A stretch of DNA of 64,000 nucleotides from Gammaproteobacteria bacterium (GTDB lineage Bacteria; Pseudomonadota; Gammaproteobacteria; JACKNK01), in assembly GCA_024234955.1 (NCBI GenBank), contig JACKNK010000001.1:212835-276834 (forward strand), read 5' to 3'. The notes beneath the pieces were generated by a model. The model searched no databases and was not told the origin of the DNA. It worked only from the letters and a program-made list of their open reading frames with translations. Shown here piece by piece: positions 1-61,477 of this stretch (positions are counted from its first letter, which is position 1; the number at the start of each line of letters is the position of its first letter). The translations under genes and the position numbers were made by a program.

Positions 1-1652
1 AATCCTCGAAGCGTCGACGTCGTTCTTTCTCCTTGAACCTCCACCGTCCAGACATTCATCTCGTCTGGTGTCTTCTTGTGCCAGCCCTTGCGCTGGAATC
101 GCCTCTGCAGGTGCTTCCATTCAATGGCGTTCGCTGCCGCGTATTCTTTGAAGATCTGCGGGCTGACGAGCAGCAATCCCTCTGACAAGCCGTGGACCAG
201 GGCATCCTTGCGGTTGCATGCCATCGATCCCGAAGCGAGGCCATCGCGCAGCCAGGTCATGAATTGATCCTCGATCTCCTTGTTGGCGGATGGTTCGCTG
301 GTTGCGTCCTCGAGGACATCGTTCTGGGGCGTTGCGACCGTTGGTGTGGGGGAAGGATCGGCGAGTCGTGGCATGGGAATCTCCGCATCGCGCTTGTCCT
401 TGACGGGCGCTGGCCCCGGGGCTGGATCCGCTGCAAGAGACGGCGATGCGGTCTGAGCATCGCCGTCTCTTGCAGCGGCGACCGCTGGTGTGACCTCCTC
501 GGTTTGGGTATGAGGCGTCACCGTTCCGGCGATGCTCGCAGGGCGTTCCTCGGGGTTTGGCCATAACCGGTCCAGATGGAAGGCCAGGACGCGCATTTCC
601 TGCTCCCAGCCGTCCTGCAGAGCGATTTGGACCGTGTGTATGGCGCGACCGTCTTCTGTGGTCGTGATCGCGCCGATCGCCTGCAGCTCGTCCATGAGCC
701 GGTTGTTGTCCGTTGGGATGCCGCGGACTCCGAGATTGCTGAGGTAGTCGCGTGCGGCATCGAGGACTTTCTTCGACACCAGCCAGGCGGTATTGCCGGT
801 GATCCAACCGGCGGCGCCACGTTGGTTGAGTGGTAGCTTGTTGTCTCGATGTAGATGCGCGATCGCGCCGAGCACCTGGTCGGCGACTGTTTTGACGTCA
901 CCGGCAACGGCGGGGCGTTTGCCGCCGGTGAGATCGCGAGCGGTCGAATAGCTGTCACCTTGCTTCACCAGTTGGGTGATGGCGTTCTCGCCACCGCTCA
1001 GGGCGCTGATCCAGTGCTCGAAGAGCTCGGGGGTTTCACTCAACCAGGCAAGGCCTTGATCCGGAATTATCCGGGTGGCCACAAGTAGCGAGGCGCTGGC
1101 ATGGAGCTTGTAGCGGCGCTGTGCGTCAAATCGAACGCGATAGAACGTGGTGCCTGTTTCAGCTAGGTTGCTGATCCAGGGGTTCCAGTCGTTGATGACC
1201 ATGCCTTTGTGGTCGACGAGTTCGACCCGCTGATCAGTGATGGGTTTGGCGATGTCGTGGAAGAGGGCGGCCGTCGCGATCGCGTAGCGTTCCTTGGCAG
1301 CCTTGATCTCGGTTTCCTCGACGATGGCCGGGATGATGGCCATGGGGGCGCGCGCTGCTCTTAGTGCGTAGACGGCCACTTCCAGGCTGTGACGCAGCAG
1401 TCCGCCAGCGTCTGCATGGTGGTGGCTTTGTGAGGCAGGGAGTTCTTGTACGAATGAGGCGTAGCGCAGCAGCAGCGTGTGCAGCAGGCGATCGGAGTGG
1501 TGGTGCGGCAACCCGACCTGGACGTTGAGTTCGTCGACCAGGTCATGGTGGCGGGCGAGGAGTGTGCCGGCGTCAGTGACTGCCAGGCAGCCAGGCGGCG
1601 GTGAGACAGTTTGCCGTTGGTTTCGGTGTGGCTTTCGCCAGCGTTGGAGCAT
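1..1652 (-). CDS. traI: MobH-family ICE relaxase TraI (PFGI-1/pKLC102 class), partial because the C-terminus runs off the window start. The start codon is at ~1652, or alternatively ~1766.
   Basis: My own minus-strand translation is open from 1809 down to position 1. It contains the motifs ASQSHHHADAGGLLRHSLEVA and LFHDIAKP, the HD-hydrolase signature of MobH relaxases such as SXT/pKLC102 TraI. It is absent from the ORF track, which only lists complete ORFs. Confidence 0.75.
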   Translation of the reverse strand, partial: MLQRWRKPHRNQRQTVSPPPGCLAVTDAGTLLARHHDLVDELNVQVGLPHHHSDRLLHTLLLRYASFVQELPASQSHHHADAGGLLRHSLEVAVYALRAARAPMAIIPAIVEETEIKAAKERYAIATAALFHDIAKPITDQRVELVDHKGMVINDWNPWISNLAETGTTFYRVRFDAQRRYKLHASASLLVATRIIPDQGLAWLSETPELFEHWISALSGGENAITQLVKQGDSYSTARDLTGGKRPAVAGDVKTVADQVLGAIAHLHRDNKLPLNQRGAAGWITGNTAWLVSKKVLDAARDYLSNLGVRGIPTDNNRLMDELQAIGAITTTEDGRAIHTVQIALQDGWEQEMRVLAFHLDRLWPNPEERPASIAGTVTPHTQTEEVTPAVAAARDGDAQTASPSLAADPAPGPAPVKDKRDAEIPMPRLADPSPTPTVATPQNDVLEDATSEPSANKEIEDQFMTWLRDGLASGSMACNRKDALVHGLSEGLLLVSPQIFKEYAAANAIEWKHLQRRFQRKGWHKKTPDEMNVWTVEVQGERTTSTLRG

Positions 1653-1946
1653 TGCCGGACCTTTTGCCCCGCAGGGGCTGACCCTTTGTGTTGGCCCTTT
1701 CCCGCCCGGGTTGCGCAGCGGCCCGGGCGGGCCCTCTGGGGGTAGGGCCTTTGCCCGTACCGCCATTCCCTTGAGGTTATCCCTTTGGCCCTTTGAGGCA
1801 GTCTGTATCTAGGTGATGTGGTATCCGCAATTATTCTGTTGAGTTCTGCACACGCCTTGGGCGCGAGCTGACTCCTACGGGCGTATTACAGCCGGCTCTA
1901 ACGTTTGAACTAAGCCGCGACGCCAAGCGTCTGCTTGAATCAATTT

Positions 1947-2546
1947 TTAGGCGACATGCGATACCTGATTGAGAAATGTACGCATAGCTTTTCGGTAACG
2001 AAAGAGCATTGAAAAACCGACAGTCAACTCGTCACCAGCCTGCGGCAAGGGCTCAATGAATGATCTGACTATCTTGATTGATTTGTCGTTCCACACACCT
2101 TGTCCGTGTGTAAGTACGTTTCGTACTGCTACGAGTTCAAAGCAGCCATTTGCTGCCCAGTGATAGCGTTGATCCAACCCTTTCTTGAGCTTCTCGACTT
2201 TTGACTGAGGAAAATTTCCCGCTGTTTCACCCCGTGCGGAAAGCGCTTCATTCATCATTTCATCAAGGATCACAACGAGATCTTGCACCAGCATCTTAAT
2301 TACTTGTCGAGATGTGTCTTCGAAGTGCATTGAAGGATCACGCCTGAAGGTAAGCACCTTCTTCCCCTCGGGGTGCGCTAGAAGAACGGAGTTGTAAGAG
2401 CAGTCTGGTGTCACCCAGGTATGCGCGTCGCGAGCGCGCTGATCCAGACTGGTCAAATCTCCAAACTGTTGTTCCCTCGAGATATGTAGCGAGTGAATCA
2501 GAGTGTAAAGAGTGCTGGTCCAGACGTTGACTCTCTCCCAGTCCAC
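1947..2546 (-). CDS. Hypothetical protein in a low-GC island, with a possible HEPN-like Rx4H motif (RNVLTH).
   Basis: 199-aa ORF in a ~48% GC patch. It points the same way as the next two genes. It contains the RNVLTH motif. Confidence 0.45.
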   Translation of the reverse strand: MDWERVNVWTSTLYTLIHSLHISREQQFGDLTSLDQRARDAHTWVTPDCSYNSVLLAHPEGKKVLTFRRDPSMHFEDTSRQVIKMLVQDLVVILDEMMNEALSARGETAGNFPQSKVEKLKKGLDQRYHWAANGCFELVAVRNVLTHGQGVWNDKSIKIVRSFIEPLPQAGDELTVGFSMLFRYRKAMRTFLNQVSHVA

Positions 2547-2607
2547 TTGGATTTCCTCCTATCAAACATCCTTTTGGATGTTTTCGTGGTAACGGGGGAG
2601 AGCCCCA

Positions 2608-3078
2608 TTACGCACAAACTGGCTCAGATTTTAACTTTTCTTCGACGCGAATTCGGTGGCGATTAGAAAGGATGGCTTTTTGTTGTTCTATATCGAGATA
2701 CCTATAACTCTGTGGTGCTACGAACCCCGACATTGCAATGCGCAGGTGTTCTAGTCTTATCGGCTCGATAGATTCGTAATGCGAAAGTTGAACGGCAAAT
2801 CCTGCATCTTGATCTTGGAAGTAGTGGTCGAAGCGATCACGGGAAAGTCCTACTTTTGCCCTATGACGCGCCCACAACTCCGTTGGCTTATCTACGTCGA
2901 TACTCGCAACGCGAACCCTGCCTAGAATCGCCCCGACAGGCAGGGTTACATACAAATAAATCCATGTTCCTTCAGGTGCATCAGGAAAACGGCGGCGCAG
3001 TTCCACGGTCTTTGATCCGCCGGCGATCTTCTCAGCAAACTCTGGTGCGACAGATAACAAAATTGCACGACCGTTCAT
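2608..3078 (-). CDS. ASCH-domain (PUA-like) protein.
   Basis: 156 aa. The N-terminus ILLSVAPEFAEKIAGGSKTVELRRR resembles ASCH/PUA-like beta-barrel proteins. It overlaps the upstream gene by 4 nt, which suggests an operon. Confidence 0.5.
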   Translation of the reverse strand: MNGRAILLSVAPEFAEKIAGGSKTVELRRRFPDAPEGTWIYLYVTLPVGAILGRVRVASIDVDKPTELWARHRAKVGLSRDRFDHYFQDQDAGFAVQLSHYESIEPIRLEHLRIAMSGFVAPQSYRYLDIEQQKAILSNRHRIRVEEKLKSEPVCA

Positions 3079-5162
3079 GCCAACATCCTCATGCCCTCTT
3101 GGTAGACCTCTGTAAACAGCCCCTCTGGCACACGCAAGGGTCCTGGCACACGATTTTTTGTGCCCATGTGGTCAAGGATTAAGTTTTCTAGCCGTTTCCA
3201 TGGCAACGGACAGACCAGTAGTTCTGTTTTCGCAAAGTGATACGCCTTCAGTTTCGCGGAAGGATCTCCTCCTGCGGCGTCCAAAATATTCTGCCATGTG
3301 TACGCACCGAGACGATGGAATTTTCTCGACAAGCGGGTCGCCTCGTCCGTCTCGGTTCCCAGGCAGAGTGAGACTGCACGGACCTCGCTGACAGGGCTGC
3401 TCACGTACCAGAGGATTCGGCTTCCCTCGGGGATCACAACGTTCGACCGAGAGTAGTAGACGTTTTCTAACGCCAGTGCAGGGTGTTCCGGGACATCAAA
3501 AAAGTCGTTTTCCGCGAGATCACGATCGAACAGCGCGGTTGCCCAGTATTTCTGGATTGGAACGATGTAGGTCGATATGCCAGCTCCAAGGACCTTGAGG
3601 GGCCAGAACATCGCCTCAAGTTCGCGAGGTTCGAGGGCGGCCAGTGTCGACACATCTGGGAAGTGGTCGTTTATAAGGTCAATCGCGCCCGTTACATCAA
3701 CCATCTCTCGTAGGGTCTGGAACACAAGAATTCCATCACGCGAATACTGAAACCCCAGTTCCAGAAGAGCTTCCTGAATATCGCCAGAACCGGGGTCATC
3801 GATCATTACGGAGGTGAGCCCCTGCCTATTCGCAATCTCAATCACATCTGCTAGGGCACGCCGCAAGAGCGTACCGGTCAACGGGCCACTGAGAGTGCGG
3901 AGAAAGCGAAGGCGTAGCGAACTGGGTGGCGACTGATCGACGGCCAGGGCTACTCGCGGATGCTCTCCGCGCACGCCGATTAACTGGACTGTGCATCTGC
4001 TGCACGACGAGAGGGTGGTTCGTATCATCCTCAGCCAAGTCGCTTTGGTTTCTCCAGAAGAGAATCGCTGAAAGGGCAGAAGGTCATGTTCCGTGACGAT
4101 CGACCGTCGCTCAACGCGTGTACCGTTGAGACGAACCGGCGCGTATGTTTGTCCGAGAAAATTCCCTTGTAAACGAGCCACCATGTCGCAAGGACGAAGT
4201 ACGGTTAACCCTGTTACCGTCAGAATGTCGTCCGCATGATCGAGAAGAACTTCATCGCGGGTCGCGAAATATTTGGCACCGTCCAGGGATGCATGGGCGA
4301 GTTGGCGACGGTCGGAAAAGTCAGAGTGGGTAACCGGCGTAGGCATTACGTCACCGATCTCGTCCAGCATCTCGTCTAGCTTGTCAGGATGTCCCGCGAG
4401 TTCTTCGAATCGATGAAAGTATGACAACGCCCGTTGCCGCTTTGCGGGGTCCGGTTGGCGTGAGACTTCATTACGAAGTTCACGGGTTACACAAATTTCG
4501 ACATCATCAAGCCAATCACTTAGTAACCCTCCACTCTCCTCATAGTGTGGGGCGGCAGGATCCATGATGTCGAAAAAGACATTGGCATCGATCGCAATTA
4601 GGCGGGACGGTGCTCCAGGCGCGTCCCGGATAGCTCGCAACAGCGGTGCATCATCTCGATTGACTCGGCGCCACTCAAAAAGTGGCATTGAGTCCGCACC
4701 TCGACCGACTATCTCGTTATCCAAGGCGAACCCGTGTTTCGGCCATAACTGATTTGCAGCCTCGTAGTCTTTGCGGCAACGCAAACGAATCGCGTTGGCG
4801 TCCTTGCTTAGATGAATCAGGTGCCGCAAGAGATTTTCGGAGCAATCAGAACCGCGGTGCTCCTCCGCAACACACAGGTGCACCAAGACGACCTCGCCCC
4901 TGGAGCGTCTCCAAGCTGCGTACCCTAGTAGCTCCTCGTTCCGCGTATGGGCAAGAACACAGCCGGCATGTACGAATTCGTCTAACGCGCCACGCGGAAG
5001 AAAGCCGAGTGTGTTGGAGTTTTTACGGTACAAATCCCACACTTTATCCACCAGGATTGAACCAGGTGGTACCAGGGAAAGCATGCTTTCGGTCATCCCT
5101 GCGAATCCTTTCCTTTCGTATGTGCCAATTAGTACGTAGTCATTCGCTTGGTGGACGAGCAC
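3075..5162 (-). CDS. Multidomain protein: N-terminal GNAT acetyltransferase, a PIN nuclease domain, a second GNAT-like region, and a C-terminal domain of unknown (possibly PUA/EVE-like) fold.
   Basis: 695 aa. The GNAT motif is LVHLCVAEEHRGSDCSENLLRHL. The PIN motif is LIAIDANVFFDIMD. A second acetyltransferase-like stretch reads LTSVMIDDPGSGDIQEALLELGF. GC is low. Confidence 0.55.
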   Translation of the reverse strand: MLVHQANDYVLIGTYERKGFAGMTESMLSLVPPGSILVDKVWDLYRKNSNTLGFLPRGALDEFVHAGCVLAHTRNEELLGYAAWRRSRGEVVLVHLCVAEEHRGSDCSENLLRHLIHLSKDANAIRLRCRKDYEAANQLWPKHGFALDNEIVGRGADSMPLFEWRRVNRDDAPLLRAIRDAPGAPSRLIAIDANVFFDIMDPAAPHYEESGGLLSDWLDDVEICVTRELRNEVSRQPDPAKRQRALSYFHRFEELAGHPDKLDEMLDEIGDVMPTPVTHSDFSDRRQLAHASLDGAKYFATRDEVLLDHADDILTVTGLTVLRPCDMVARLQGNFLGQTYAPVRLNGTRVERRSIVTEHDLLPFQRFSSGETKATWLRMIRTTLSSCSRCTVQLIGVRGEHPRVALAVDQSPPSSLRLRFLRTLSGPLTGTLLRRALADVIEIANRQGLTSVMIDDPGSGDIQEALLELGFQYSRDGILVFQTLREMVDVTGAIDLINDHFPDVSTLAALEPRELEAMFWPLKVLGAGISTYIVPIQKYWATALFDRDLAENDFFDVPEHPALALENVYYSRSNVVIPEGSRILWYVSSPVSEVRAVSLCLGTETDEATRLSRKFHRLGAYTWQNILDAAGGDPSAKLKAYHFAKTELLVCPLPWKRLENLILDHMGTKNRVPGPLRVPEGLFTEVYQEGMRMLA

Positions 5163-5445
5163 TAGAATTCAGCGATCGTTCGGGTGATCACGGCGAAGTG
5201 GCGCTGCCTTGAGCGTTGGAGCACGCTTCGTCCCCGGCTATTTGTAGGGCGTTGCGAGGTTCTCTGACCACATCGTCGTCTGATGAGCGAGTGAGTATGA
5301 TCACGATTCGTTGCTTCCGGACAAAGGTAGCGCAAAGTGATCCGATATATCAGCTGACGCTGTTGTTTTCAGAAAATGCTTAGAGTTACTGGTTGGATCA
5401 GTTCTCGCAGCGTTGTTCTTTTGAGTGCGGACTTTTAACAGAATG

Positions 5446-5541
5446 CCCATTTTGTTCAATGTCGGGTGTCGCCGGGTACGGTACGACGGGTTCTCGCGAG
5501 GTCCCGTGACTGACGTGCCAAACTCCGTTTTGTTCAAAGTC
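5446..5541. repeat. Two copies of a ~16-bp direct repeat, ttttgttcaa(t/a)gtcg, 78 bp apart, just upstream of the fimB-like gene.
   Basis: Seen at ~5446-5463 and ~5524-5541, in the divergent intergenic region between the GNAT-PIN gene and the fimB-like gene. Confidence 0.5.
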
Positions 5542-5549
5542 GCGGAGAG

Positions 5550-6134
5550 ATGGTGGTGGAAGAGGGTGTTCAGCTGGTTGTCGATGGCCATGACCGGCAG
5601 GGCCGGGACTTTCTGACCCCATCGGAGATCACGCAGCTGCTCGATGCCGCCAAGAAAGGTCGGCATGGCGTTCGTGACCATGCCTTGCTGCTGACGATGT
5701 ATCGGCATGGATATCGGGTCTCGGAACTCTGTGAGGCGACGCTCAACGACTTGAGTCTTGGCGAGGCGCACATCTGGGTACGGCGAAAGAAGGGATCGAT
5801 GTCGACTCAGCAGCCGATCGAAGGCGACGAACTGCGTGCCTTGCGTCGTTACCTGCGGACAAGGTCATTGAATCAACGATGGCTGTTCCTGTCGGAGCGG
5901 GACGGGCCCTTAACGCGGAATGCGGTGTACTACCTGGTCACGCGTGCCGGCGAAAAGGCTGGACTGCCCTTCACCGTGCATCCGCATATGCTGAGGCACT
6001 CGTGCGGGTACTACCTGGCCAACAAGGGTTACGACTTGAGATTGATCCAGGACTACTTGGGGCACCGAAATCCTACGCATACAGCCAGATATACTCGAAC
6101 CGCATCCGCGCGATTTCATGGACTTTGGTCGTAG
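5550..6134 (+). CDS. FimB/FimE-family tyrosine recombinase, a short site-specific invertase-type recombinase.
   Basis: 194 aa. It is very similar to E. coli FimB throughout, for example HPHMLRHSCGYYLANKGYDLRLIQDYLGHRNPTHTARYT, with the catalytic R..HxxR..Y residues. Confidence 0.85.
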   Translation: MVVEEGVQLVVDGHDRQGRDFLTPSEITQLLDAAKKGRHGVRDHALLLTMYRHGYRVSELCEATLNDLSLGEAHIWVRRKKGSMSTQQPIEGDELRALRRYLRTRSLNQRWLFLSERDGPLTRNAVYYLVTRAGEKAGLPFTVHPHMLRHSCGYYLANKGYDLRLIQDYLGHRNPTHTARYTRTASARFHGLWS

Positions 6135-6179
6135 CCGTGCGAGTGCGTTTTTTAGCAAGCATGAACAAGGAGGCTCTGT

Positions 6180-6491
6180 ATGGATATCGATCCGTTTGCG
6201 CAACTCGTCGGTGGCTATGACAATTTGCTTTATTTCGGGCTGGGTGTGCTCGTATTGGGAGCAATGCTTCGTTGGGTACGTCTCCGTACAGACGTTTACC
6301 TCAACACACCGACGTATCGGAATTACGTTGCGAGACACCCTGAGGCCGCGACCGGAGACGGTGTCAAATGTATTCACTGTGGGAGCGCAAACATCCGGAA
6401 TAGGGGGTATCAGGGCGAACAGGATCGTTCCAGGCTGCATGTCTGCGAGAGCTGCGGCCGGACGCTATACCGGACGACATCGAGTTTTTAG
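6180..6491 (+). CDS. Small protein with an N-terminal transmembrane segment and a C-terminal CxxC...CxxC zinc ribbon.
   Basis: 103 aa. A strong aaggagg Shine-Dalgarno lies 7 nt upstream of the ATG. The cysteine pairs are CIHCGS and CESCGR. Confidence 0.45.
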   Translation: MDIDPFAQLVGGYDNLLYFGLGVLVLGAMLRWVRLRTDVYLNTPTYRNYVARHPEAATGDGVKCIHCGSANIRNRGYQGEQDRSRLHVCESCGRTLYRTTSSF

Positions 6492-6501
6492 GTGGGGGCA
6501 G

Positions 6502-7416
6502 CTAAACGCGCGGCAGCTGCCGAATGACCTGCCGCTGCAACTCCTCGTTGCTGTGTACGTATTCCAGGGTGGACCGGTAGTCGTTGTGTCCCATCAGTTC
6601 CTGCAGGGTGCGTAGATCCGTTTTTGGCGCAAGCATGGTACCGAAGGTGTGTCGCAGCTTGTGCGCGCTGATCGGGATGCTCAGATGGTCGGAGAGGCGG
6701 CGAAAAAAACCGCTGATTTGCTCCGGCGTCAGTTCATCCCCTTTGAAGCGTGTCGTGAACCGGGTCACGTTGAAAAGCTGTTCATCCTGGTCATCGATGC
6801 AAACCTGTATCTCTGACCGGTTCAGCAGGCGCACGAGATGGGGCAGTAAGAGATCCGAGATCGCAATGTCGCGGGCCTCTCCGTTCTTCGAGAACTCGGC
6901 CCGGAGGTGGATGGCGCCAGCGCGAAGGTCGACGTCACCAACACGGATGCCGGCGAGTTGGCGCCGGCGGATTCCGGTGAAGAACAGCGTTCGTATCGCT
7001 GTCGCCCAAAACCAGCCTGGCTCCAAGGCGCAGTCTGGCCCCTCCAGGTAGTCAATCGCAGATTGCACGGTCTCCAGCTGAAGAGACTTCGGCAGCTTCT
7101 TGGGTGGACGTAGCGTTACCCGATCGAAGGGGTTGCTCTCGATGCCTGATTCCACGACATCTTTGCGCAGGAACTCCCACAGGGCCCGCATATGCACGGC
7201 GTAGTTGTTCCAGCTCCGGATCGCTGCTCGGCTCAGTACCTGCTCACGCCAGAGAAGCACGCCTTGCCGGGTCAAGGAGGCCACGTTCCCCACAGGATGG
7301 CCCAGGGCCTCCAAATCTCGCTCGGCGAGAGCAATGACTGTCTGGTAGTGACGCATCGTCGCCGCGCTGGGTAACCGCTCCAGGCGGTAGGCGTTCAGTG
7401 CATCCCACAGTGTCAT
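6502..7416 (-). CDS. Tyrosine site-specific integrase/recombinase of the phage-integrase family, XerC/XerD-like.
   Basis: 304 aa. The C-terminal catalytic region AHKLRHTFGTML...LMGHNDYRSTLEYVH carries the R-H-R-Y signature. Confidence 0.85.
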   Translation of the reverse strand: MTLWDALNAYRLERLPSAATMRHYQTVIALAERDLEALGHPVGNVASLTRQGVLLWREQVLSRAAIRSWNNYAVHMRALWEFLRKDVVESGIESNPFDRVTLRPPKKLPKSLQLETVQSAIDYLEGPDCALEPGWFWATAIRTLFFTGIRRRQLAGIRVGDVDLRAGAIHLRAEFSKNGEARDIAISDLLLPHLVRLLNRSEIQVCIDDQDEQLFNVTRFTTRFKGDELTPEQISGFFRRLSDHLSIPISAHKLRHTFGTMLAPKTDLRTLQELMGHNDYRSTLEYVHSNEELQRQVIRQLPRV

Positions 7417-7505
7417 TTCGCTCCCTCATCCATTGCATTGCGCTTCTCCCTGCACGTGGGAACGACGGCGCGGCTTCCATAATTCCGGAATCTTTCAGAC
7501 CGACG

Positions 7506-8054
7506 TCAATCGATGCGGGTCACAGATTCCTGGAAGTTCCACATCAACCATTCGAGCCCGAACGCCCAGGCGATTCGACCCATGATCTTGATGCAGGGGA
7601 CCGCGCTACGATTCCTGAAGTCGTAGAGATACGTCGCCGAAACGTCGATCGCATCGGCCAGTTTCGTGATCGAGTCGACCGCTTCACCATCTGGAGTCAG
7701 GACGTTGATTGGCGGGTTTTTCTTAATGCCAATAAGAAGATCGATCTGACGATCTACCAATGCGGACATGCCCATCACGAGCCCGTTGGGCAGGTCTCGA
7801 AGAAGTGGGGCGGTGAGGTCGAAGAAACGTCGAAGATCGGTCGGGTTGCTGGGGTCGAGCGTGAATGCGGCGGCGCGGGCCTGTTGGTACAGACCCCGGT
7901 AAATACGGTCGAGATCCGGGCGGAATTCGACGACGGGGACGGATCGATTGGCGGGTTGTGCCATGACAGCTCCTTCTTGGTACTGATGATTTCCGTAAAA
8001 GTGGAAATATTTTTTCAGCGGCATGACGAAGCGGTCAACACACGCTTTCGTCAT
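7506..8054 (-). CDS. XRE-family helix-turn-helix DNA-binding protein. The start may instead be the internal Met at ~7964.
   Basis: The C-terminus has an HTH, ITKLADAIDVSATYLYDFRNRSAVPCIKIMGRIAWAFG. Confidence 0.45.
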   Translation of the reverse strand: MTKACVDRFVMPLKKYFHFYGNHQYQEGAVMAQPANRSVPVVEFRPDLDRIYRGLYQQARAAAFTLDPSNPTDLRRFFDLTAPLLRDLPNGLVMGMSALVDRQIDLLIGIKKNPPINVLTPDGEAVDSITKLADAIDVSATYLYDFRNRSAVPCIKIMGRIAWAFGLEWLMWNFQESVTRID

Positions 8055-8067
8055 GCCACTGGACGCT

Positions 8068-8808
8068 TCAGTACCGGAAATAGAGCAACCGGCTGAACCG
8101 TGGCCAGACGCTCACTCCAAGGCGCTCATTCCAATCTTCAGGCAAACGCAACGTGCCGAAAATCGCGTCCCAGAACGTGATAGTTGCGTAGTTGAACCGG
8201 TGCAGGCCTCGCTGGTGATGCACCAGGTGTTGTTCCGGTATCTGGACCACGTAGCCCAGCGGGCGCAGCCAGCGGGGCGTGTTTACGTTTGCGTGGTGGA
8301 ACGATTCGAGCGTGCCCTCGATGACGAGAACGGACCAGATAATCGTGGCATCGAGGCCCAGTCCAAGCCTGGCGACAATGACGATCACTGCTGAATTGGC
8401 AAAGATTTCGATGGGGTGGCGCCAGAACGCCACCCGCGTTTCCATGTGCGCGGCCGCGTGATGGGCGAAGTGCAGGTAGTGCCAAAGCGGGTGGAATCGG
8501 TGCTTGGCGCGGTGCCACCAGTAGGCCGCGAAGCTGTATACGGCGTACCCGATCAGGAGTTGCTGCCAGTCGCTGAGTCCATCCAGGGGATGCCATATGA
8601 GTGGCAGTCCGGACCAGGCGGAGAGATAACTTGCCGTCCATGCGGCTGCGTAGAGTTGGACGGCTGCCCACCACCAATTCCATCCCGGTGCGTCCGGGTA
8701 GTGACGGGCGGGTTTGACGCGCTCCATGATGAAGAACGAAGTGAAGACGACGGCCTGCATGGCCATGATTTGGGTTTCCATTGCTCCCTCCTGTATTTCC
8801 GTTTGCAA
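8068..8808 (-). CDS. Fatty acid hydroxylase / sterol desaturase-family membrane protein.
   Basis: It has His-box motifs (HRAKHRFHPLWH, HFAHH, HHANV...HLVHH) and several hydrophobic segments. Confidence 0.7.
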   Translation of the reverse strand: MQTEIQEGAMETQIMAMQAVVFTSFFIMERVKPARHYPDAPGWNWWWAAVQLYAAAWTASYLSAWSGLPLIWHPLDGLSDWQQLLIGYAVYSFAAYWWHRAKHRFHPLWHYLHFAHHAAAHMETRVAFWRHPIEIFANSAVIVIVARLGLGLDATIIWSVLVIEGTLESFHHANVNTPRWLRPLGYVVQIPEQHLVHHQRGLHRFNYATITFWDAIFGTLRLPEDWNERLGVSVWPRFSRLLYFRY

Positions 8809-8855
8809 GGAGGAGCGGATGCTACGACTTCAGTTCACGCGGACAGGAAACAGTC

Positions 8856-9509
8856 ATGTGCGGTCGATACAACTTGGTGACCGATGCTCAGGCGCTCGTC
8901 GACTTCTTCGACGTGGCCATGGCGATCGACCCGGTCTTTGTGCCCCGATACAACATCGCGCCGACGCAGTTCGTACCGATCGTTCGTGACCAGGGGCGGG
9001 GCAGGGATCTGCTGAATGCCCGCTGGGGCCTCGTGCCGCATTGGTCGCGGGAAGGTGAGACCAAGTATTCGACGATCAACGCACGCGCGGAGACAGTTGC
9101 CGAGAAGCCCACGTACCGGGCTTCGTTCAGGCACCGTCGCTGCCTGGTGCCGGCGACCGGGTTTTACGAATGGAAGGCTGGCGACAATGGTAAGCAGCCA
9201 TACCAAATCACACTCGCCGGCGGCGGACTGCTTGCGTTCGCCGGGTTATGGGATCGATGGATTGGCCAGGAGGGTGAGCTATTCAGCTTCTCGATCGTGG
9301 TTACCGCGGCCGATGCTTCCATGCAGGGGTTGCACGAACGTATGCCCGTGATGCTGGAGCCGAAGGACTACAGCACCTGGCTGACCGGGAGCGGGGACGT
9401 GGTGAGTTCGTTGCTGCGGCCGCACGGTCAGAACCTGGAGCTTCGTCCGGTGAGCCGGTACGTCAACAGTCCTGCCCACGATGATCCGAGGTGTCTCGAC
9501 CCTGTCTAG
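8856..9509 (+). CDS. yedK: SOS-response-associated peptidase (SRAP, YedK/HMCES family). The start is taken at MCGRY. The listed ORF begins 75 nt further upstream.
   Basis: It has the MCGRY N-terminus and the conserved SRAP core (NARWGLVPHW, ARAET, FYEWK). The catalytic Cys2 requires a start at MCGRY. Confidence 0.85.
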   Translation: MCGRYNLVTDAQALVDFFDVAMAIDPVFVPRYNIAPTQFVPIVRDQGRGRDLLNARWGLVPHWSREGETKYSTINARAETVAEKPTYRASFRHRRCLVPATGFYEWKAGDNGKQPYQITLAGGGLLAFAGLWDRWIGQEGELFSFSIVVTAADASMQGLHERMPVMLEPKDYSTWLTGSGDVVSSLLRPHGQNLELRPVSRYVNSPAHDDPRCLDPV

Positions 9510-33056: not shown

Positions 33057-33955
33057 GGCGACGCACTCCAGCTGAGCTGGGTAGCGCCGTCGACGCTCGG
33101 CAAGGCGTGATCCGCATAGCGGAGCACCAGGGGAAGATACGACCCGACATCCTGAGGACGAAGAGTCATGACGGCAGCTCCCTGTGCGGCCGCCAATCGC
33201 TGAGCCGTGATCGTCAGAGAGACGATCTGGCCATCCGCGAGGTAGGCCAGTCCCCGGATGACGCGCACGTTGTGCGCGATGCGGTCCTTTTCGCCGGGTG
33301 CGTAGTCCGGAATACGGGACCCCAACAACCGATCCCGTTCGGCCTCGTACTGACTGATCTCGATCTGAACGGCAGACAAGTCATCGCGTGCCGTGGCCGC
33401 ACCCCAGGTGTCGGAGAGCCAGGTAGCCACCAGGCCGACGGTCAGGACAGCGGCAGGCAGAGCGTGCCGGACGATGATCCGGTGCCAGCGACGTCGCAGC
33501 GCGACAACGGCTTCTTCGGGTAGCAGGACGGGTGTGGGGGGAAAGACGATATCGACCGGTTCGAGCACCATCGCGGTCTCGATCGAGACACGATCCAGGC
33601 CCACTGACCTGCCGGCGTTAAGACGACCGCTGCGCCAAGTGCCGGCGGCGACCGCGACGTAGTAGCCGTCTTGCCGGACGAAATCGGTCCACACGATCCA
33701 GGTGCCATCTTCAACGGCACGGATCAGACCGCTATGAAATACGGTTTGCCACAGGCCGAATACGGGCACGTCGGGCGCCTCCGCGCGTGCTTCGGCCACC
33801 TGGTCTTCCGACACCCAAGACAGCGGCGCATTCAGGGCCTGCGTCAGGGTCAGACCATCATCACCGACCTCGTCGGAAACGACATCAGCCAGCAGAAATC
33901 CCGGCTGGCCGTCGATGTGGATCGGCTGATTCAGCAGCCAGTTCGAGCCGCTCAT
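33053..33955 (-). CDS. pilO: PilO-like protein.
   Basis: 300 aa. Its position after the pilN-like gene fits. Confidence 0.5.
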   Translation of the reverse strand: MSGSNWLLNQPIHIDGQPGFLLADVVSDEVGDDGLTLTQALNAPLSWVSEDQVAEARAEAPDVPVFGLWQTVFHSGLIRAVEDGTWIVWTDFVRQDGYYVAVAAGTWRSGRLNAGRSVGLDRVSIETAMVLEPVDIVFPPTPVLLPEEAVVALRRRWHRIIVRHALPAAVLTVGLVATWLSDTWGAATARDDLSAVQIEISQYEAERDRLLGSRIPDYAPGEKDRIAHNVRVIRGLAYLADGQIVSLTITAQRLAAAQGAAVMTLRPQDVGSYLPLVLRYADHALPSVDGATQLSWSASP

Positions 33956-35529
33956 GTCGCCAATTCCGTGGGCGTGATGATGAACAGCAACTCACGATGA
34001 CTCTGTTCATCGAGTGACGATCCGAGAACCCGGTTGAGCGGATTGTCTGGTGCCAAGGGCAGCTGCTTGAGAGCACGGGCAACGCGATCGGAGGTCACGC
34101 CGCCGACGTAAACAGGCCGACCGGAGCGGGAGATGACCTGGGTAGCGGTCAGCGCGGGACCGACCACCGGACTCTGGAAGGTCTGCGATCCGCTGGTCAG
34201 GGTGTCGAAGCGGGTAACGCTCGACAGTTCCGGTGCGAGGTCGATCAGGATGCGGTCGTTGCGGGTGGTGCGGGCCGATACCAGGAACTTCGTGCCGACA
34301 CTCAATCGACCCAACGTCGCGGTCTCGGTCACATTGCCGTTCAGATCGGCCAGCGCCTCGATGTCCGCGACATAGGAAAATTCTTCACCCACGTTGATGT
34401 AGGCACTGCCGCCGTTCAGCAGCGTGATGCTGCCGCGCGTGATGTCGTAGCTGCGCGCGTTTTTCGCGAGCAGTTCAGTGAGGATATTCAGGGTCCATTT
34501 GGTCCCGGAAACCAACGACCCGGTGACGGCCCAGGTTCCGGAGTCCGCGATCGCGGAGCGTGCGCTGGAATTCAGCGTCACGCTGGAACGGCCATCATTG
34601 AACACGGCAGACCAGTCGAGCCCTTGGGCGACCGAGTTCGACCAGGTCACGTCCACGACGATCAGCGACAGATGGATCTGGCGGAGTCCTCGATCCGCGA
34701 GGTCGGAGAGATAGCGATCCAGTTCGCGGATACGTTGCGGTGGACCACCAGCGGTAATCGTTCCAAGCCGGCGATCCGCAGCCAGCCACGTGCGCGGAGC
34801 GAAATCCGAGGGCGTGTTGGATTCCGAGCTGGCTTGCGCAGGCGCAGCCGGGAAGGCGGGCGGGAATGTCTCACCGGTCGCATCTGCAACGGTCGATGCC
34901 CCAGCGCCACTGTCAGTCTCGGAAACGCCAAGGATGCGTTGCGAGTTCTGAACCGCGACTTGAAACGCATCGTCGGCATTGCTCAGCTCCAGCTTGGTCG
35001 ATCGACCACCTGAGCTTTCGCTCGACGACTCCGATGAACCATCGCTTGCCGACGAAGACGACTCATTGCTCGACGAGATGCTCGCGGACGATGTGTTGGC
35101 CGTGGCGATCGCGGACAGATCCCAGGTCTTAACCGACGTCGACGCGATCCGGATGGTTCGCCCATCCAGCGTGACGTCGTAGCCGGTGATGCCGGCGATG
35201 TAACGAAGGAAGTCGGAGACGGGCAGCTGACCGGCCACAATCGAGATGGGTTTGCGCAGATCGACGCCCGCATCCATCGGCAGGATGGCGTGTCGCGGCA
35301 GCGCGTCCGACAGCGCATCCGCCAATGCGGCGTGCGGTAGGTTCAGTGATACGCGTGCCTCACTGGTTTTGCGCTCGGGCGTGACCACGCGGAGGAAGGT
35401 CTTCGGCGCACTCGGGGTGACCTGTACCTGCGGGATGCTTGCAACGGACTCCGCCGGATCCAGCGGTTCGAGGGTCGTGCAACCAGCCAGTGCAACCGGC
35501 ATCACAGAAATGACGGCCCAGCGGATCAT
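33952..35529 (-). CDS. pilN: PilN secretin-family lipoprotein (type IVb).
   Basis: It has a lipobox (LAGCTT) and a secretin C-terminal domain (ELLFIITPTEL). Confidence 0.75.
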   Translation of the reverse strand: MIRWAVISVMPVALAGCTTLEPLDPAESVASIPQVQVTPSAPKTFLRVVTPERKTSEARVSLNLPHAALADALSDALPRHAILPMDAGVDLRKPISIVAGQLPVSDFLRYIAGITGYDVTLDGRTIRIASTSVKTWDLSAIATANTSSASISSSNESSSSASDGSSESSSESSGGRSTKLELSNADDAFQVAVQNSQRILGVSETDSGAGASTVADATGETFPPAFPAAPAQASSESNTPSDFAPRTWLAADRRLGTITAGGPPQRIRELDRYLSDLADRGLRQIHLSLIVVDVTWSNSVAQGLDWSAVFNDGRSSVTLNSSARSAIADSGTWAVTGSLVSGTKWTLNILTELLAKNARSYDITRGSITLLNGGSAYINVGEEFSYVADIEALADLNGNVTETATLGRLSVGTKFLVSARTTRNDRILIDLAPELSSVTRFDTLTSGSQTFQSPVVGPALTATQVISRSGRPVYVGGVTSDRVARALKQLPLAPDNPLNRVLGSSLDEQSHRELLFIITPTELAT

Positions 35530-44367: not shown

Positions 44368-44583
44368 TGGGGTTTCCTCCAGAGGAAATGAAACCGAGAG
44401 ACACACCGATCTCCCATCCGGGAAGGCGTGTTCCCGGTGGGATTGACGTTGAGAAGTGGGACTCATCGATCGCTGGGAGCGGTCGATCGCGACGTTACGG
44501 AGTCCGAGGCGTCGCTTTAGTCGGCCTACCGAAGCAGGCACGAAACTGATTCGGACCCTAGATCAGGTCCGAAGAACAGGCAG

Positions 44584-54190: not shown

Positions 54191-54433
54191 TCAATCCGCC
54201 TCGCGCAGATACTCCGGCAAGCCCTTCCGGGCACCGATCGTGCGGATCTTTTCGCGGGCATGTTTCTCCATGTAGTAAATCGCCTGGTGCGAGCATCCGC
54301 AGACGTCGGCAATGTCCCGACAGCTGAGCGTCTGTCCCGGCCTGGCGACCGCGCACAGCACACTCAGCCCCAGGTCGATATCCCGGTGTTTCTCGGGCGA
54401 TGTGGTCGGGTTGCGGCGTAACCGGGTATTCAT
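54191..54433 (-). CDS. Small HTH DNA-binding protein.
   Basis: It has the HTH LSCRDIADVCGCSHQAIYYMEKHAREKI. It overlaps the topB stop. Confidence 0.4.
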   Translation of the reverse strand: MNTRLRRNPTTSPEKHRDIDLGLSVLCAVARPGQTLSCRDIADVCGCSHQAIYYMEKHAREKIRTIGARKGLPEYLREAD

Positions 54434-56604
54434 GCCTTAACCCACTCGAAGTGCTTGCACTCCGGGAACCTGCTGCATCCGAGAAAGGGTGAACCCGGAC
54501 TGTTGCCGCCTTTCGTGGAACGCAGCACCAGCTTGCCGTTACCGCAACTTGGGCATGTCTCACCGGCGCGCCCGGGCGTCGGCGCATCACCACCGCTCGC
54601 GGCGCCAGGCGCCGCGCTGCGCTTCCCAGGCTTGCCCTTCAGATCAGGCAACGTGGTCTTGCAATCCGGATAGTCGGTGCAACCCCAGAAGAACCCCTTA
54701 CTGCTTTTACGCCGCTGCATCGGCTTGCCGCACTCCGGACAGGCGTGTTGCGCCGCCGCCGGCGCGGCCGCGATCGCCACCGCGCCAGCCTGACCGACAA
54801 GCGCCTGCAGTGTCCGCAGCTGCTGATCCATGAACTGATCCAACGTCATCTCGCCACGCTCGATCTGAGCCAGCATTTCCTCCCAGATCGCCGTCGTCGC
54901 CGGGTCGCTGACCGGCGACGGCACCGCGTCAACCAGTGTTCTGCCGTTCGGTGTCGACTTCAGGGCTTTCTTGGCCTTTACCAGCAAGCCGCGTTGCACC
55001 AGATTCGCGATGATCGAAGCGCGTGTCGCCTCGGTGCCGATACCGGACGAATCCCGTAGCCGCTTCTGCAGATCCGGATCATCAACAAACCGCGCTGCGT
55101 TCTTCATGGCAGCGATGAGCGTGCCTTCCGTGAATGGCGCCGGTGGCCGGGTCAGTTTCCGCTCGATCTCCGCATGACCGGGTAATGCCTCGTCGCCGGC
55201 CTGAACCGGCGGCAAGGTCTGCACCTCGCCGGCGACGTCGTCATCGTCGCCCAGCACCACGCGCCACCCAGTGACACGCGGGACACGGCCGGTGACACCG
55301 AAGAACGAAGCGGCGCACTCGATGCGGACCACCGTCTCATCGAACTCGTAATCCGGGTAGAACTGCGCCAGGTAGCGCCGACGAATCATGTCATAGACCG
55401 CCGCTTCATCGGCGGACAGCTTCCCCATATCCACGGTCGCCGCGGTCGGGATGATCGCGTGGTGGGCAGTGACCTTCTTGTCATTCCAGGCCCGTGACCG
55501 GTGCCCGGCGTCCGCGTCGTCGACCAGGTCGACGAGCGCCGCGTCGGACCGCGCCATCGCGGCGAGCACATCCGGTGCATCGCCGAGCTGACTCTCCGGC
55601 AAGTAGGAACAGTCCGAGCGTGGGTAGGTCGTCGCCTTGTGCGTCTCGTACAAGGCCTGCGCGATGCTCAGCACCTGGTCTGCGCCGAGCCCCAGCTTCG
55701 CGTTGCAATACTGCTGCAAGTCGGACAGTGAAAACGGCAAGGGCGGCGGCGTGCGCTTTCGGGAAGTGTCCGCCTGGAAAATCTCGCCGACGGGGCGTGG
55801 CGTCGCCGACAGGGCGGCGACTACTGCCTGGGCCGCCGCTTCGTTGACGCAGCGGTCTTCATCGTCGGTCACCGCCTCTGGAGCGATCCAGCGCGCGGTC
55901 AGCGGTCCGCGCGGCGTGGAGAACTGCACGGCCAGCACCCAATACGGCGCCGGCGTGAAATCCTCGATGGCACGGTCGCGCTCGACGACCAGGCGCAGGG
56001 TAGGGGTCTGAACCCGCCCGACCGGGAAAAGTGCGTCGTGGCCAGCACGCCGCGCGAGCAGGGTGTACAGCCGTGTCAGGTTCATGCCGATCAACCAATC
56101 GGCACGAGCGCGACCAAGGGCAGCTTGATACAGCGATTCCGTCGCAGACCCTGGGCGAATGCTCGCCAAAGCGTTCTTGATGGACGCAGAGTCCAGTGCC
56201 GTCAGCCACAGGCGCGTGACGGGCCCGTGCCAGCGGCATTGATCCAGGAGCTCCCGAGCGATCATCTCACCCTCGCGGTCGGCGTCGGTTGCAATCACGA
56301 CCGACGAAGCCTTGCCGAGCAGCGTCTTGATTACCTTGAACTGACCGCGACCACGTGAGGTCACGCCTAGCTTCCAATCATCAGGAGCGATCGGGAGATC
56401 TCCCAGCTCCCATCGCTTGTATCGCTCGTCGTAGGCGTCGGGCGTCTGCATCTCCAGCAAGTGCCCGAGCGCCCAGGTCACCATCTGGTCGCCGCCATCG
56501 ATGTAGCCATCTCCCCGTCGCGTGAAACCCAGCACCTGGGCGAGGTCTCGTGCTTGGGACGGCTTTTCGCAGATGTAGATGCGTGTCATGAGAGTTCTTC
56601 CCAC
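54430..56604 (-). CDS. topB: DNA topoisomerase III (TopB-like) with C-terminal zinc ribbons.
   Basis: It has a TOPRIM N-terminus (MTRIYICEKPSQARDLAQVLG...DADREGE), the catalytic Tyr region, and C-terminal CPECGK/CPSCGNG motifs. Confidence 0.9.
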   Translation of the reverse strand: MGRTLMTRIYICEKPSQARDLAQVLGFTRRGDGYIDGGDQMVTWALGHLLEMQTPDAYDERYKRWELGDLPIAPDDWKLGVTSRGRGQFKVIKTLLGKASSVVIATDADREGEMIARELLDQCRWHGPVTRLWLTALDSASIKNALASIRPGSATESLYQAALGRARADWLIGMNLTRLYTLLARRAGHDALFPVGRVQTPTLRLVVERDRAIEDFTPAPYWVLAVQFSTPRGPLTARWIAPEAVTDDEDRCVNEAAAQAVVAALSATPRPVGEIFQADTSRKRTPPPLPFSLSDLQQYCNAKLGLGADQVLSIAQALYETHKATTYPRSDCSYLPESQLGDAPDVLAAMARSDAALVDLVDDADAGHRSRAWNDKKVTAHHAIIPTAATVDMGKLSADEAAVYDMIRRRYLAQFYPDYEFDETVVRIECAASFFGVTGRVPRVTGWRVVLGDDDDVAGEVQTLPPVQAGDEALPGHAEIERKLTRPPAPFTEGTLIAAMKNAARFVDDPDLQKRLRDSSGIGTEATRASIIANLVQRGLLVKAKKALKSTPNGRTLVDAVPSPVSDPATTAIWEEMLAQIERGEMTLDQFMDQQLRTLQALVGQAGAVAIAAAPAAAQHACPECGKPMQRRKSSKGFFWGCTDYPDCKTTLPDLKGKPGKRSAAPGAASGGDAPTPGRAGETCPSCGNGKLVLRSTKGGNSPGSPFLGCSRFPECKHFEWVKA

Positions 56605-56855: not shown

Positions 56856-57115
56856 AATGACCATGGGGTGGGGGCACGGTCCTCGTGTTCGTTTCCGCAA
56901 AGCTCGCCATCGAGCAACGGTAACGTTCAAGCGAACGATGGCCCCTTTGGTGGTGGCCACTCCGAGAGTGGCTCACTACCCGTCGGCCCACGCACCGGTG
57001 CCGACTTACCGGAGCGACCCCTCTGAGCACCCTTGGCCGGGGTGTACAGAGCGTTGCCACGACGTTTCGTGGTGCTTGAGCGGCGACGTCGCCGTGCCCC
57101 CACCCCATGGTCATT
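56856..57115. repeat. Perfect 24-bp inverted repeats, aatgaccatggggtgggggcacgg / ccgtgcccccaccccatggtcatt, flanking a ~212-bp non-coding segment. Its structure is MITE-like.
   Basis: The arms at 56856-56879 and 57092-57115 were read directly. The right arm overlaps the stop of the RepA-like gene. Confidence 0.7.
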
Positions 57116-58052
57116 TCTTTGTTTTGTTCTTTACGTTCACCGGCCTTACATGCGTCCGTGACGGATAGAGCCGTAGGTATTCTGCGTCGTGGTCGACACG
57201 CGCTTGGGGAAACACCTGAAGGACGTGCTTGAGGTTTGGGATGAAGCCCTTGTTCCTGAAGTCACGTAAGCCCTGAGTGGTGTCGGGATAGCCGGCCCCG
57301 AACTGCTTTTGCAGGTAGATCCAGGGGATCGGCGTTGGTCGCCGTAAGTACGAGAACCGATGTGTGAGCCAGCAGTAGATGTCCATGGCCATCGAGGAGC
57401 CACGCAGCGCGTGCATGGCTTGAAGGCTGATCGGAATTGGTGCGGCGGTTACTTCCTCGAAGAAGTTCTCAGAGAGCTTTACGGAGGACTGACCTAAGCC
57501 AAGCTGGTTGGGGTTGTCCGGATCCCACCAAAGGCTGACGTCATCGGTGATGTCGCATTTGCGCTGTGAGAAGGCCTTCCCATCGTCGTAGATGATCCGG
57601 ATCGATGCCGTGAACAATTTGATCGACTGGTCACGCACGACTCGAATCGTGCCGCGTTGGCCCCCCGTCATGTGATCGATGCCGATGTTGGCCAGGTAAT
57701 CACCGAACGTGGCGCCGAGGCCGATCCATCGCTCCTTGGTTTCGACCGCGCGCGTCGTCAACCAAGCGAGGATCAGTCGCGGCTTTGGCCCGTAGGGCAG
57801 GCCGTATCGCGGATCGGAGCTCACCACGACTCGTAGATGGCCATTCGCACGTTCGTGGGAGTAGGCACGGGTGCGTGCGTGGGGCAGGGTCGCACGGGCC
57901 AGTGTCTGAGCCATGTATCCGACCGCGCCGGCGGCGCGGGCTTCTTCGGTCTCCTGTCCCAACGCCTCCTCATACAGCAGATCGAGCGAGGCTTGCTGGC
58001 TCGCCTGCTCGGTCGCGGACAGATCGTTATCCAAGGCGTGACGTGAACTCAT
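57111..58052 (-). CDS. Conserved ICE protein, possibly a replication-initiator-like (RepA/RPA-family) protein.
   Basis: 313 aa. It is located between parB-like and topB, as in related ICEs. The family assignment comes from memory of the element layout, not from a motif. Confidence 0.35.
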   Translation of the reverse strand: MSSRHALDNDLSATEQASQQASLDLLYEEALGQETEEARAAGAVGYMAQTLARATLPHARTRAYSHERANGHLRVVVSSDPRYGLPYGPKPRLILAWLTTRAVETKERWIGLGATFGDYLANIGIDHMTGGQRGTIRVVRDQSIKLFTASIRIIYDDGKAFSQRKCDITDDVSLWWDPDNPNQLGLGQSSVKLSENFFEEVTAAPIPISLQAMHALRGSSMAMDIYCWLTHRFSYLRRPTPIPWIYLQKQFGAGYPDTTQGLRDFRNKGFIPNLKHVLQVFPQARVDHDAEYLRLYPSRTHVRPVNVKNKTKK

Positions 58053-61171: not shown

Positions 61172-61242
61172 CGTCCTTCCTCCGAATCAGGTCCATGTTC
61201 CTGAATACGTTGAGAAAAAACCGATAGACGCCAATTGAATGG

Positions 61243-61284
<42 letters not shown>

Positions 61285-61477
61285 CACAATCTGGTCCGAT
61301 TACCCTGATCCAATTGGCCAGAATAAAGACCGGAGGTTGCTTCTCCGTTGCGAAGCTCGAAGGTGTTACGCCTCCTCGGGCTTTTTTTATGTCGCGTAAC
61401 TTCCGGATTTCGTCACACGGCCCTAAGCTCTGGGGATTTCGTAAGCTGACGCGTGCGTCTCGCTTTAGCGGTATCCC

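Follow-up and report, generated by a model that had tools for sequence, protein, structure and literature searches.

Tn3-family elements transpose via cointegrates, and these are resolved at a site inside the transposon by a site-specific recombinase that the transposon itself encodes (PMC7157771). A survey of 190 members of the family recognized three resolvase types, and the only carriers of TnpI were Tn4430, Tn5401 and TnBth4 (PMC7157771). In the TnpI/IRS system of Tn4430, strands are exchanged at a core formed by IR1 and IR2, and directly repeated accessory TnpI motifs impose selectivity for resolution (PMC2847244). Here we describe a 64,000-nucleotide stretch of contig JACKNK010000001.1 from a Gammaproteobacteria bacterium (hereafter the window), in which a gene for a tyrosine recombinase of 194 amino acids (aa) is preceded by a DNA site composed of three arms. 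A sequence-only reading had assigned this gene to the FimB/FimE-type invertases, and proposed that it either switches the expression of an adjacent operon or belongs to a small element that brought this operon in. By analogy with the systems above, we consider it reasonably probable that positions 5431-6134 represent a self-contained res-type resolution module, made of a single tripartite site and a small single-domain recombinase. Its components, and the two open reading frames (ORFs) that follow, are:

5431-5442, minus strand: IR1, the left core arm, ACTTTTAACAGA (reverse complement TCTGTTAAAAGT)
5443-5450, no strand: central spacer of 8 bp, ATGCCCAT, a gap that is constant across the family
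5451-5462, plus strand: IR2, the right core arm, TTTGTTCAATGT, within the first copy of a direct repeat reported earlier
5529-5540, plus strand: DR, the directly repeated accessory arm, TTTGTTCAAAGT, within the second copy of that repeat
5550-6134, plus strand: 194-aa tyrosine recombinase (ORF listing)
6180-6491, plus strand: 103-aa Zn-ribbon protein (ORF listing)
6502-7416, minus strand: 304-aa tyrosine integrase, convergent with the preceding genes (ORF listing)

The direct repeat noticed in the sequence-only reading is real. The motif TTTTGTTCAA occurs at 5447-5464 (CCATTTTGTTCAATGTCG) and at 5525-5542 (CCGTTTTGTTCAAAGTCG), 78 bp apart, and the two copies are equal at 16 of 18 positions, a score reached by one of 300 dinucleotide shuffles. 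We reread them as two arms of a three-arm site. DR follows IR2 at a distance of 78 bp and in the same direction, 9 nt upstream of the start codon of the 194-aa gene, where it adjoins the ribosome-binding site. Because of the analogy with the core sites of other tyrosine recombinases, strand exchange would take place in the 8-bp spacer at 5443-5450.

The arm motif was first seen by counting 8-mers upstream of 80 loci in both orientations, followed by a self-consistent search, and is defined from about 80 related loci (designated below by L numbers). A scan of the 64 kb with this motif, allowing up to two mismatches, yielded matches only at the three clustered arms. The family layout consists of a 12-bp IR1, the 8-bp spacer, an inverted IR2 and then DR, oriented like IR2. 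The distance from IR2 to DR is quantised across the family, being either 77/78 bp or, in some loci, 87/88 bp, which is one helical turn more. This layout is found upstream of about 80 relatives from many phyla. Sorted by identity to the 194-aa protein, it is present in all six loci at 70% or more, in 30 of 41 at 60-70%, in 39 of 58 at 53-60% and in 5 of 16 at 47-53%, and in none of the 38 below 47%, genuine E. coli-type fimB loci among them.

The three arms of one locus change together. Most loci carry GTAAAGAGT, while the variant is GTTCAA in the window, L003, L177 and L178, GTCCTCAGT in L061, and GGGACAAGT in L037; such co-variation is what would be expected of binding sites for the adjacent protein. 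L177 and L178 are metagenomic close relatives whose module is 83-86% identical to that of the window at the DNA level; in both, IR2 is identical to that of the window and the IR1 position reads ACTTTGAACAGA. The 66 bp between IR2 and DR (5463-5528), which include the palindrome CTCGCGAG at 5493-5500, are nearly invariant in the window, L177 and L178 despite a synonymous divergence (dS) of 0.82 in the gene, and may hold a promoter or a host-factor site. A search of 5000-6600 for sigma-70-like promoters found none. The position of the accessory arm varies within the family: in most Tn3-linked relatives it reads AATGTAAAGAGT and lies inside the gene, encoding a conserved N-terminal R-N-V-K-S (loci L002-L089, upstream regions such as L016 5872-5983), and in the subclade of the window it lies just upstream of the start codon instead.

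The recombinase consists, according to Pfam, of the Phage_integrase catalytic domain only (residues 21-186), and its catalytic residues R56, K81, H146, R149, H172 and Y181 are invariant in the family alignment. Among NCBIfam models it scores best with two named 'tyrosine-type DNA invertase' (FimB/FimE), NF007370 and NF007371, yet it stays below the cutoffs of both (186.6 vs 221 bits and 166.9 vs 222 bits); against the XerC and XerD models it reaches 111 and 119 bits (cutoffs 335 and 330). With FimB and FimE it shares a length of about 200 aa, the restriction to a catalytic domain, the R-K-H-R-H-Y set and the closest curated models, and it is 45-52% identical to the enterobacterial invertases. 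The earlier description of the protein as unmistakably FimB/FimE-like is borne out by the best models and by the domain content, but not by the scores. More than 7,700 protein clusters are homologous to it at E<=1e-20, with 55-76% identity, from Proteobacteria, Acidobacteria, Bacteroidota, Planctomycetota, Actinomycetota, Chloroflexota and other phyla; a metagenome scan returned no relative above 66% identity. The comparison with L178 gives a ratio of nonsynonymous to synonymous divergence (dN/dS) of 0.034 at a dS of 0.82, which indicates strong purifying selection on the gene. All in all, the enzyme is FimB/FimE-like by sequence and resolvase-like by context, and most likely acts as a transposon-type resolvase and not as a promoter switch.

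That context is provided by its relatives. At 25 loci, a Tn3-family transposase gene (PF01526 plus DUF4158) lies at most 600 bp away, with the tripartite site between both genes. L082 (2859-6616, 3,758 bp) and L052 (2825-6643, 3,819 bp) hold complete minimal transposons of the order IR-tnpA-site-recombinase-IR, with terminal inverted repeats of 38-39 bp and 5-bp target duplications (AACAG and AGGGA). They contain the transposase, the tripartite site and the short recombinase only, and this recombinase is their sole resolvase candidate. Further minimal Tn3-family elements of ~3.8 kb occur in L022 (103-3921) and L027 (6-3908); the terminal repeats of 38-39 bp start with GGCCC in L082, L052 and L022, and L027 has a different, imperfect 51-bp pair. 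Plasmids carry other relatives, beside parA, rep and toxin-antitoxin genes, where multimer-resolution functions are usually encoded. Because 25 relatives adjoin a Tn3 transposase, some of them in complete transposons, we infer that the family comprises cointegrate or multimer resolvases that act like TnpI/IRS. A short FimB-like type is absent from the three resolvase types of the Tn3 survey (PMC7157771). Our literature search likewise found no short FimB-like recombinases described as Tn3-family resolvases, a weak negative as the main Tn3 review was outside the search.

TnpI/IRS is the closest characterised analogue in mechanism, likened here by site layout and context. In Tn4430 and Tn5401, too, the tyrosine recombinase gene stands beside a Tn3-family transposase gene (here in the relatives), the site lies directly upstream of the gene and combines an inverted core with directly repeated accessory motif(s), and passenger genes abut it (PMC2847244, PMC7157771). 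The differences are that TnpI has two accessory motifs where we find one arm about 78 bp away, that the spacer is 8 bp as drawn here and 4 bp between the TnpI motifs, that the window copy has no transposase, and that Pfam finds only a catalytic domain in the 194-aa protein. TnpI of Tn4430 has about 284 aa and an N-terminal domain.

Other parallels exist. The module would share with TnpR/res of Tn3 and gamma-delta the resolution of cointegrates with accessory sub-sites imposing selectivity, autoregulation via promoter-overlapping sites, and a site that serves as a junction where modules are exchanged and passenger genes are joined; however, TnpR is a serine and not a tyrosine enzyme, with unrelated chemistry, and res has three dimer-binding sub-sites. 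Cre/loxP of P1 and XerCD at cer/dif also rely on one site per replicon that acts only when duplicated, but loxP has no accessory arm, Xer recombination involves two recombinases and host accessory proteins, and the 194-aa protein lacks the N-terminal DNA-binding domain.

In the mechanism that we propose, recombinase protomers bound to IR1 and IR2 would exchange strands across the 8-bp spacer, and a protomer on the accessory arm would shape the synapse such that pairing of two sites in direct repeat is preferred. A multimer of the integrating conjugative element (ICE) that carries the module would contain sites in this arrangement, as would a cointegrate with an element bearing a compatible site, and recombination would return monomers. 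Binding of the recombinase beside the start codon probably autoregulates its gene. The module would derive from the one that serves resolution in a large group of Tn3-family transposons, or be common to both, and would have been recruited to or retained in the ICE, where its core site may double as a junction for cargo turnover.

The strong linkage of the family to Tn3 transposases elsewhere, a window copy without transposase, and variable DNA on both sides of the module in L178 would also fit an idle remnant, that is, a Tn3-type resolution module stranded in the ICE after loss of the transposase and recombining only occasionally. We think this quite unlikely, as the gene is intact with all catalytic residues present, dN/dS is as low as 0.034 across a lineage with a dS of 0.82, conservation extends over all three arms and the DNA between them in three ICE fragments, and the ICE- or island-borne subclade recurs in at least five distinct contexts.

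On the other side of the site lies an operon that reads away from it. The features concerned are:

1819-5430, minus strand: apparently replaceable low-GC cargo block of 3.6 kb, comprising the 199-aa ORF, the ASCH and GNAT genes and 5163-5430
3075-5162, minus strand: gene for a 695-aa GNAT protein, divergent from the 194-aa gene (ORF listing, Pfam)
2608-3078, in an operon with the 695-aa gene: gene for a 156-aa ASCH protein (Pfam)
1947-2546, in an operon with the 695-aa gene: 199-aa ORF without family match

Pfam recognizes GNAT in the 695-aa and ASCH in the 156-aa protein, and the pair matches the PADLOC candidate defence system PDC-M11A/B. The GC content is 0.48-0.58 over roughly 1800-5600, compared with 0.60-0.67 in the flanks and backbone. 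The intergenic region between the 695-aa and the 194-aa gene spans 5163-5549. A divergent GNAT-PIN operon across a gap of 388 bp had been described here; the divergence and the GNAT domain hold, whereas the gap is 387 bp and Pfam does not confirm a PIN domain (E<=0.01).

This arrangement, with a gene divergent from the operon across 387 bp, would suit a fim-type phase switch, in which a promoter-bearing segment within 5163-5549 is inverted to toggle the GNAT/ASCH operon. FimB/FimE invertases as the best-scoring curated models and the 45-52% identity to the enterobacterial enzymes also speak for it, although both curated cutoffs are missed. In fimS, however, a promoter segment of 314 bp is enclosed by two 9-bp inverted repeats and lies downstream of the recombinase genes; here, a single tripartite site lies upstream, there is no invertible segment, no fimbrial genes are present, and the scores are sub-cutoff. 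The motif scan of the 64-kb window (up to two mismatches) detected no inverted partner of the site, hence no invertible segment, and no direct partner, hence no excisable segment. Among further loci searched, L001 had only the same site and L171 had none. Exact repeats shared between 5163-5549 and the edges at 1790-1960, 7400-7520 and 6120-6510 are at or below the shuffle expectation, the longest inverted repeat inside 5163-5549 is an 8-bp palindrome, below the shuffle mean, and a repeat finder run over 1500-8200 gave short chance-level pairs only, apart from the known direct repeat. In true fimB loci (45% identical), used as a positive control, the 9-bp fimS repeat TTGGGGCCA and its reverse complement were found 305 bp apart, downstream of the gene; the method therefore detects a real switch where one exists.

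Other observations agree with this result. The site region is oriented alike in all four assemblies that contain it (window, L001, L177 and L178), the site layout is common to Tn3-linked relatives and absent from true fimB loci, and the sigma-70-like promoter that a switch would move was not found in 5000-6600. The 8-bp palindromes reported for this region are present (GTGATCAC, GATATATC, CTCGCGAG and TCAGCTGA), but these four compare with 1.4 expected and are only marginally enriched, given that 14 of 300 shuffles produced four or more. Since the window holds a single site without inverted or direct partner, recombinase-controlled ON/OFF expression of the operon, as suggested by the sequence-only reading, is not supported, and in our judgement such a fim-like switch is extremely improbable here.

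The comparison with L177 and L178 instead points to a role of the site as a border. The L178 recombinase is 95% identical in protein sequence, and its locus matches 5431-6128 at 85.7% DNA identity as well as 1769-1818 at 84%. Between these two matches, its cargo is an unrelated 1.9 kb with two paralogous genes of about 225 aa; L178 differs from the window in cargo and right flank and keeps the left backbone junction and the Fim module. L177 matches 5428-6121 and 6501-9169 and is unrelated further left. Homology sets in at IR1 base 1 (5431) in L178 and 3 bp earlier in L177. In a three-way alignment with the window, similarity over the 40 columns that precede IR1 is no better than chance, and about 88% of the next 120 columns, up to the ATG, are invariant. 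An equally sharp onset at IR1 base 1 is found in 12 of about 21 informative family pairs (at least 80% identity). L064 and L071 differ at 4 of the 12 IR1 positions and are identical in the spacer, IR2 and the following bases, the trace that would be expected of a crossover at the IR1/spacer boundary between compatible sites.

Because the upstream DNA of the relatives is unrelated, starting exactly at IR1, we interpret 1819-5430 as replaceable cargo bounded by a crossover site, its right border coinciding to the base with the outer edge of the core. Core crossovers between different site-bearing molecules would place new DNA left of IR1, and for this reason the 3.6-kb defence-like cargo would be bounded exactly by it. 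The other border (about 1818) would have been set by a separate event in a shared ICE backbone. The alternative proposal of the sequence-only reading, that the low-GC cargo arrived on a recombinase-borne element nested in the ICE, stands in part: the block appears replaceable and is bounded by the core site, but the cargo varies beside a fixed recombinase module, and the edge repeat comparisons found no excision-type repeats flanking 1819-5430. Related ICEs do show different cargo beside a kept module (L177, L178), and direct repeats at the edges of the block in the window, which had been anticipated, do not exceed chance.

A sharp border of this kind recalls integrons, where the recombinase gene (IntI) is also divergent from the cargo and the cargo ends abruptly at the recombinase's own site (attI). 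The module might then be a docking platform at whose core the recombinase inserts circular, site-bearing cassettes, having captured the defence-like operon itself. The homology breaks at IR1 base 1 in many independent pairs would agree with this, as would three different left flanks in three close relatives, and cargo genes that point away from the site in both the window and L178, with the recombinase divergent. Weak arm-like motifs are also present near the far cargo end, at L178 173-184 (TTTGTTAGAAGT, 11 of 12 positions) and at window 1902 (9 of 12), but they are unconvincing as a second site: the L178 candidate has a 12-bp instead of an 8-bp gap to a poor partner arm, and there is no second core site at the far border in the window. 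Moreover, the left flank of Tn3-linked loci is simply tnpA, and the variable cargo is on the other side, 3' of the gene, in L086, L087, L088 and L033. With no attC-like second site found, no cassette arrays and a recombinase of another clade, the likeness to integrons is a resemblance only, and we regard the docking platform as unlikely. The same low probability applies to its extension, in which the module would be an integron-like acquisition point for defence and other cassettes in ICEs and Tn3-family transposons. In a weaker form, the clade could represent a fourth, uncatalogued type of Tn3-family resolvase that was repeatedly recruited to cargo hotspots of ICEs.

All relatives at 67-76% identity are located in islands or ICE-like regions, several of them beside defence-type genes:

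L086: type II restriction-modification pair beside the recombinase
L087: ThiF/Multi_ubiq/BubE set beside the recombinase
L088: SMC/AAA_13 protein and TIR protein beside the recombinase

L087 (2655-6622) and L088 (8596-14948) have a common, ICE-like backbone composed of a 321/328-aa gene, the recombinase, DUF2779 and FlhC. The two are homologous up to the stop codon of the recombinase and again from the DUF2779 gene onwards; the defence-type cargo between these points differs and marks a second type of slot linked to the module, 3' of the recombinase. In the distant L033 (Flavobacteriaceae), a GNAT-type 704-aa protein and an ASCH protein, distantly homologous to the pair in the window, are encoded directly after the recombinase (6717-9243). 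The module thus appears repeatedly at the edge of variable cargo, on either side.

Downstream of the recombinase, the Zn-ribbon ORF with a strong Shine-Dalgarno sequence was correctly recognized from the start: AAGGAGG stands 7 nt before its ATG, and the 103-aa protein belongs to a real conserved family of 272 cluster representatives. Its members have a hydrophobic stretch at the N-terminus, a putative transmembrane helix, followed by CxxC...CxxC, in the overall pattern PTLxxYLxxHP...CxHCGS...CNxCG..LYR. The Zn-ribbon gene, together with its flanks (window positions 6122-6500), has no counterpart in L177, whose two recombinase genes overlap by their stop codons; we interpret the gene as an accessory insertion or indel between them.

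The 304-aa protein is a full-length tyrosine recombinase with the Pfam catalytic domain, convergent as noted before, but its label as XerC-like does not survive the scores (84.4 vs a cutoff of 335 bits for XerC, and 66.2 vs 330 bits for XerD). Its family is rare, with only 18 relatives found among 5.8 billion clusters. Those informative for its context are:

L085: 39%-identical relative, adjoining tRNA-Pro and a Fim-like gene with tripartite site
L171: 43%-identical paralogue in the same genome, adjoining tRNA-Pro
L176: relative adjoining tRNA-Lys
L172: 48%-identical relative in the same slot, from type IV secretion system (T4SS) genes to relaxase, with other cargo and no Fim-like gene
L177: 85%-identical protein, syntenic with a homologue of the 182-aa ORF, a fatty-acid hydroxylase and SRAP

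The window copy is internal to the ICE, not at an element end. Between it and the T4SS genes, 7506-9509 (L177 3-1664) encode a 182-aa ORF without family match, a fatty-acid hydroxylase-family protein and SRAP (SOS-response-associated peptidase), a synteny kept in L177. Because the integrase has the same neighbours in L177 and occupies the same slot in L172, it reads as part of the backbone of the ICE lineage and not as the integrase of a mini-element; it is possibly an ancestral or second ICE integrase. The occurrence of its relatives at island ends beside tRNA-Pro or tRNA-Lys, the Fim-like gene that again adjoins the 39%-identical relative in L085, and a GC content below that of the backbone would be compatible with a nested mini-element, in which about 1819-7416 were inserted by the 304-aa integrase, bringing the Fim-like gene and the cargo. 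Yet the direct repeats at the edges are not above chance, L177 keeps the integrase, a 152-aa gene, the fatty-acid hydroxylase and SRAP in synteny, L172 has its integrase in the same slot without a Fim-like gene, and L178 keeps the left junction and the Fim module with a different cargo and right flank. As these three loci keep different parts of 1819-7416, the units do not move together, and we give the nested mini-element a very small chance of being correct.

The surrounding DNA is identified as an ICE by its relaxase and transfer genes, with a TraI_2 relaxase to the left of the module and TIGR03755, TIGR03756/TraU, DUF1525, TraC and others to the right. At 61236-61288, 53 bp repeat the 3' part of the tRNA-Pro(GGG) gene of L171 (9075-9127) exactly and so mark the right end of the ICE (att repeat). 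parA (60323-61171) lies just inside this end, and the chromosomal mrp/apbC (61542-62720) beyond it. The intact tRNA-Pro, the terminal integrase and merR-ihfA-pheTS are located, in contig coordinates, about 27 kb left of the window start; the terminal integrase, outside the window, is the 43%-identical paralogue of the 304-aa protein. With the terminal integrase and intact tRNA at this distance and the att repeat at 61236-61288, the ICE measures about 89 kb. ARAGORN predicted another tRNA-Pro(GGG) of 83 nt at 44441-44523, which is unlike the genuine tRNA-Pro of the genome and probably a false positive. Among the other genes of the ICE are those for a secretin-domain protein (33952-35529; perhaps part of a type IV pilus), a topoisomerase III-like protein (54430-56604) and a RepA_C protein (57111-58052); such plasmid-like maintenance functions would accord with a requirement to resolve multimers. 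A megablast search of 1800-7600 against a plasmid collection gave no match, and an Rfam scan of 1500-8200 matched no family.

Several points weigh against a resolution module in this ICE. The function that we propose is derived from context and analogy, and the need for multimer resolution in this particular ICE is assumed. The protein lacks the N-terminal domain of TnpI, and the site has one accessory arm where TnpI has two. Neither a Tn3 transposase remnant nor a Tn3-type terminal repeat was found in the 64-kb window, and none of the six closest relatives (at least 70% identity) adjoins a transposase, so that the role of the subclade borne by ICEs may have changed. Some 14 kb of the ICE to the left of the window (window coordinates about -4.4 to -18.3 kb) lie outside the scan for a second site. 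Finally, the homology break is at the outer edge of IR1 and not visibly inside the spacer, a pattern that plain conservation of a functional site beside unrelated DNA would also give.

Small FimB-like recombinases are routinely annotated as invertases or "XerC/XerD". The locus described here belongs to a very large clade (>7,700 clusters, many phyla) in which the tripartite site is conserved and which is linked to Tn3-family transposons and to maintenance regions of plasmids, and for this reason predictions of phase variation that are based on the protein only would often be wrong. If its absence from the catalogued Tn3 resolvase types holds, the clade would represent a new resolution system that pairs a very compact enzyme with a site both short and well defined, and its co-varying variants of site specificity could serve as an orthogonal recombinase toolkit. 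For the biology of ICEs, one border of a variable, partly defence-carrying cargo slot appears pinned to a specific 32-bp core site, which makes the mechanism of cargo turnover directly testable.

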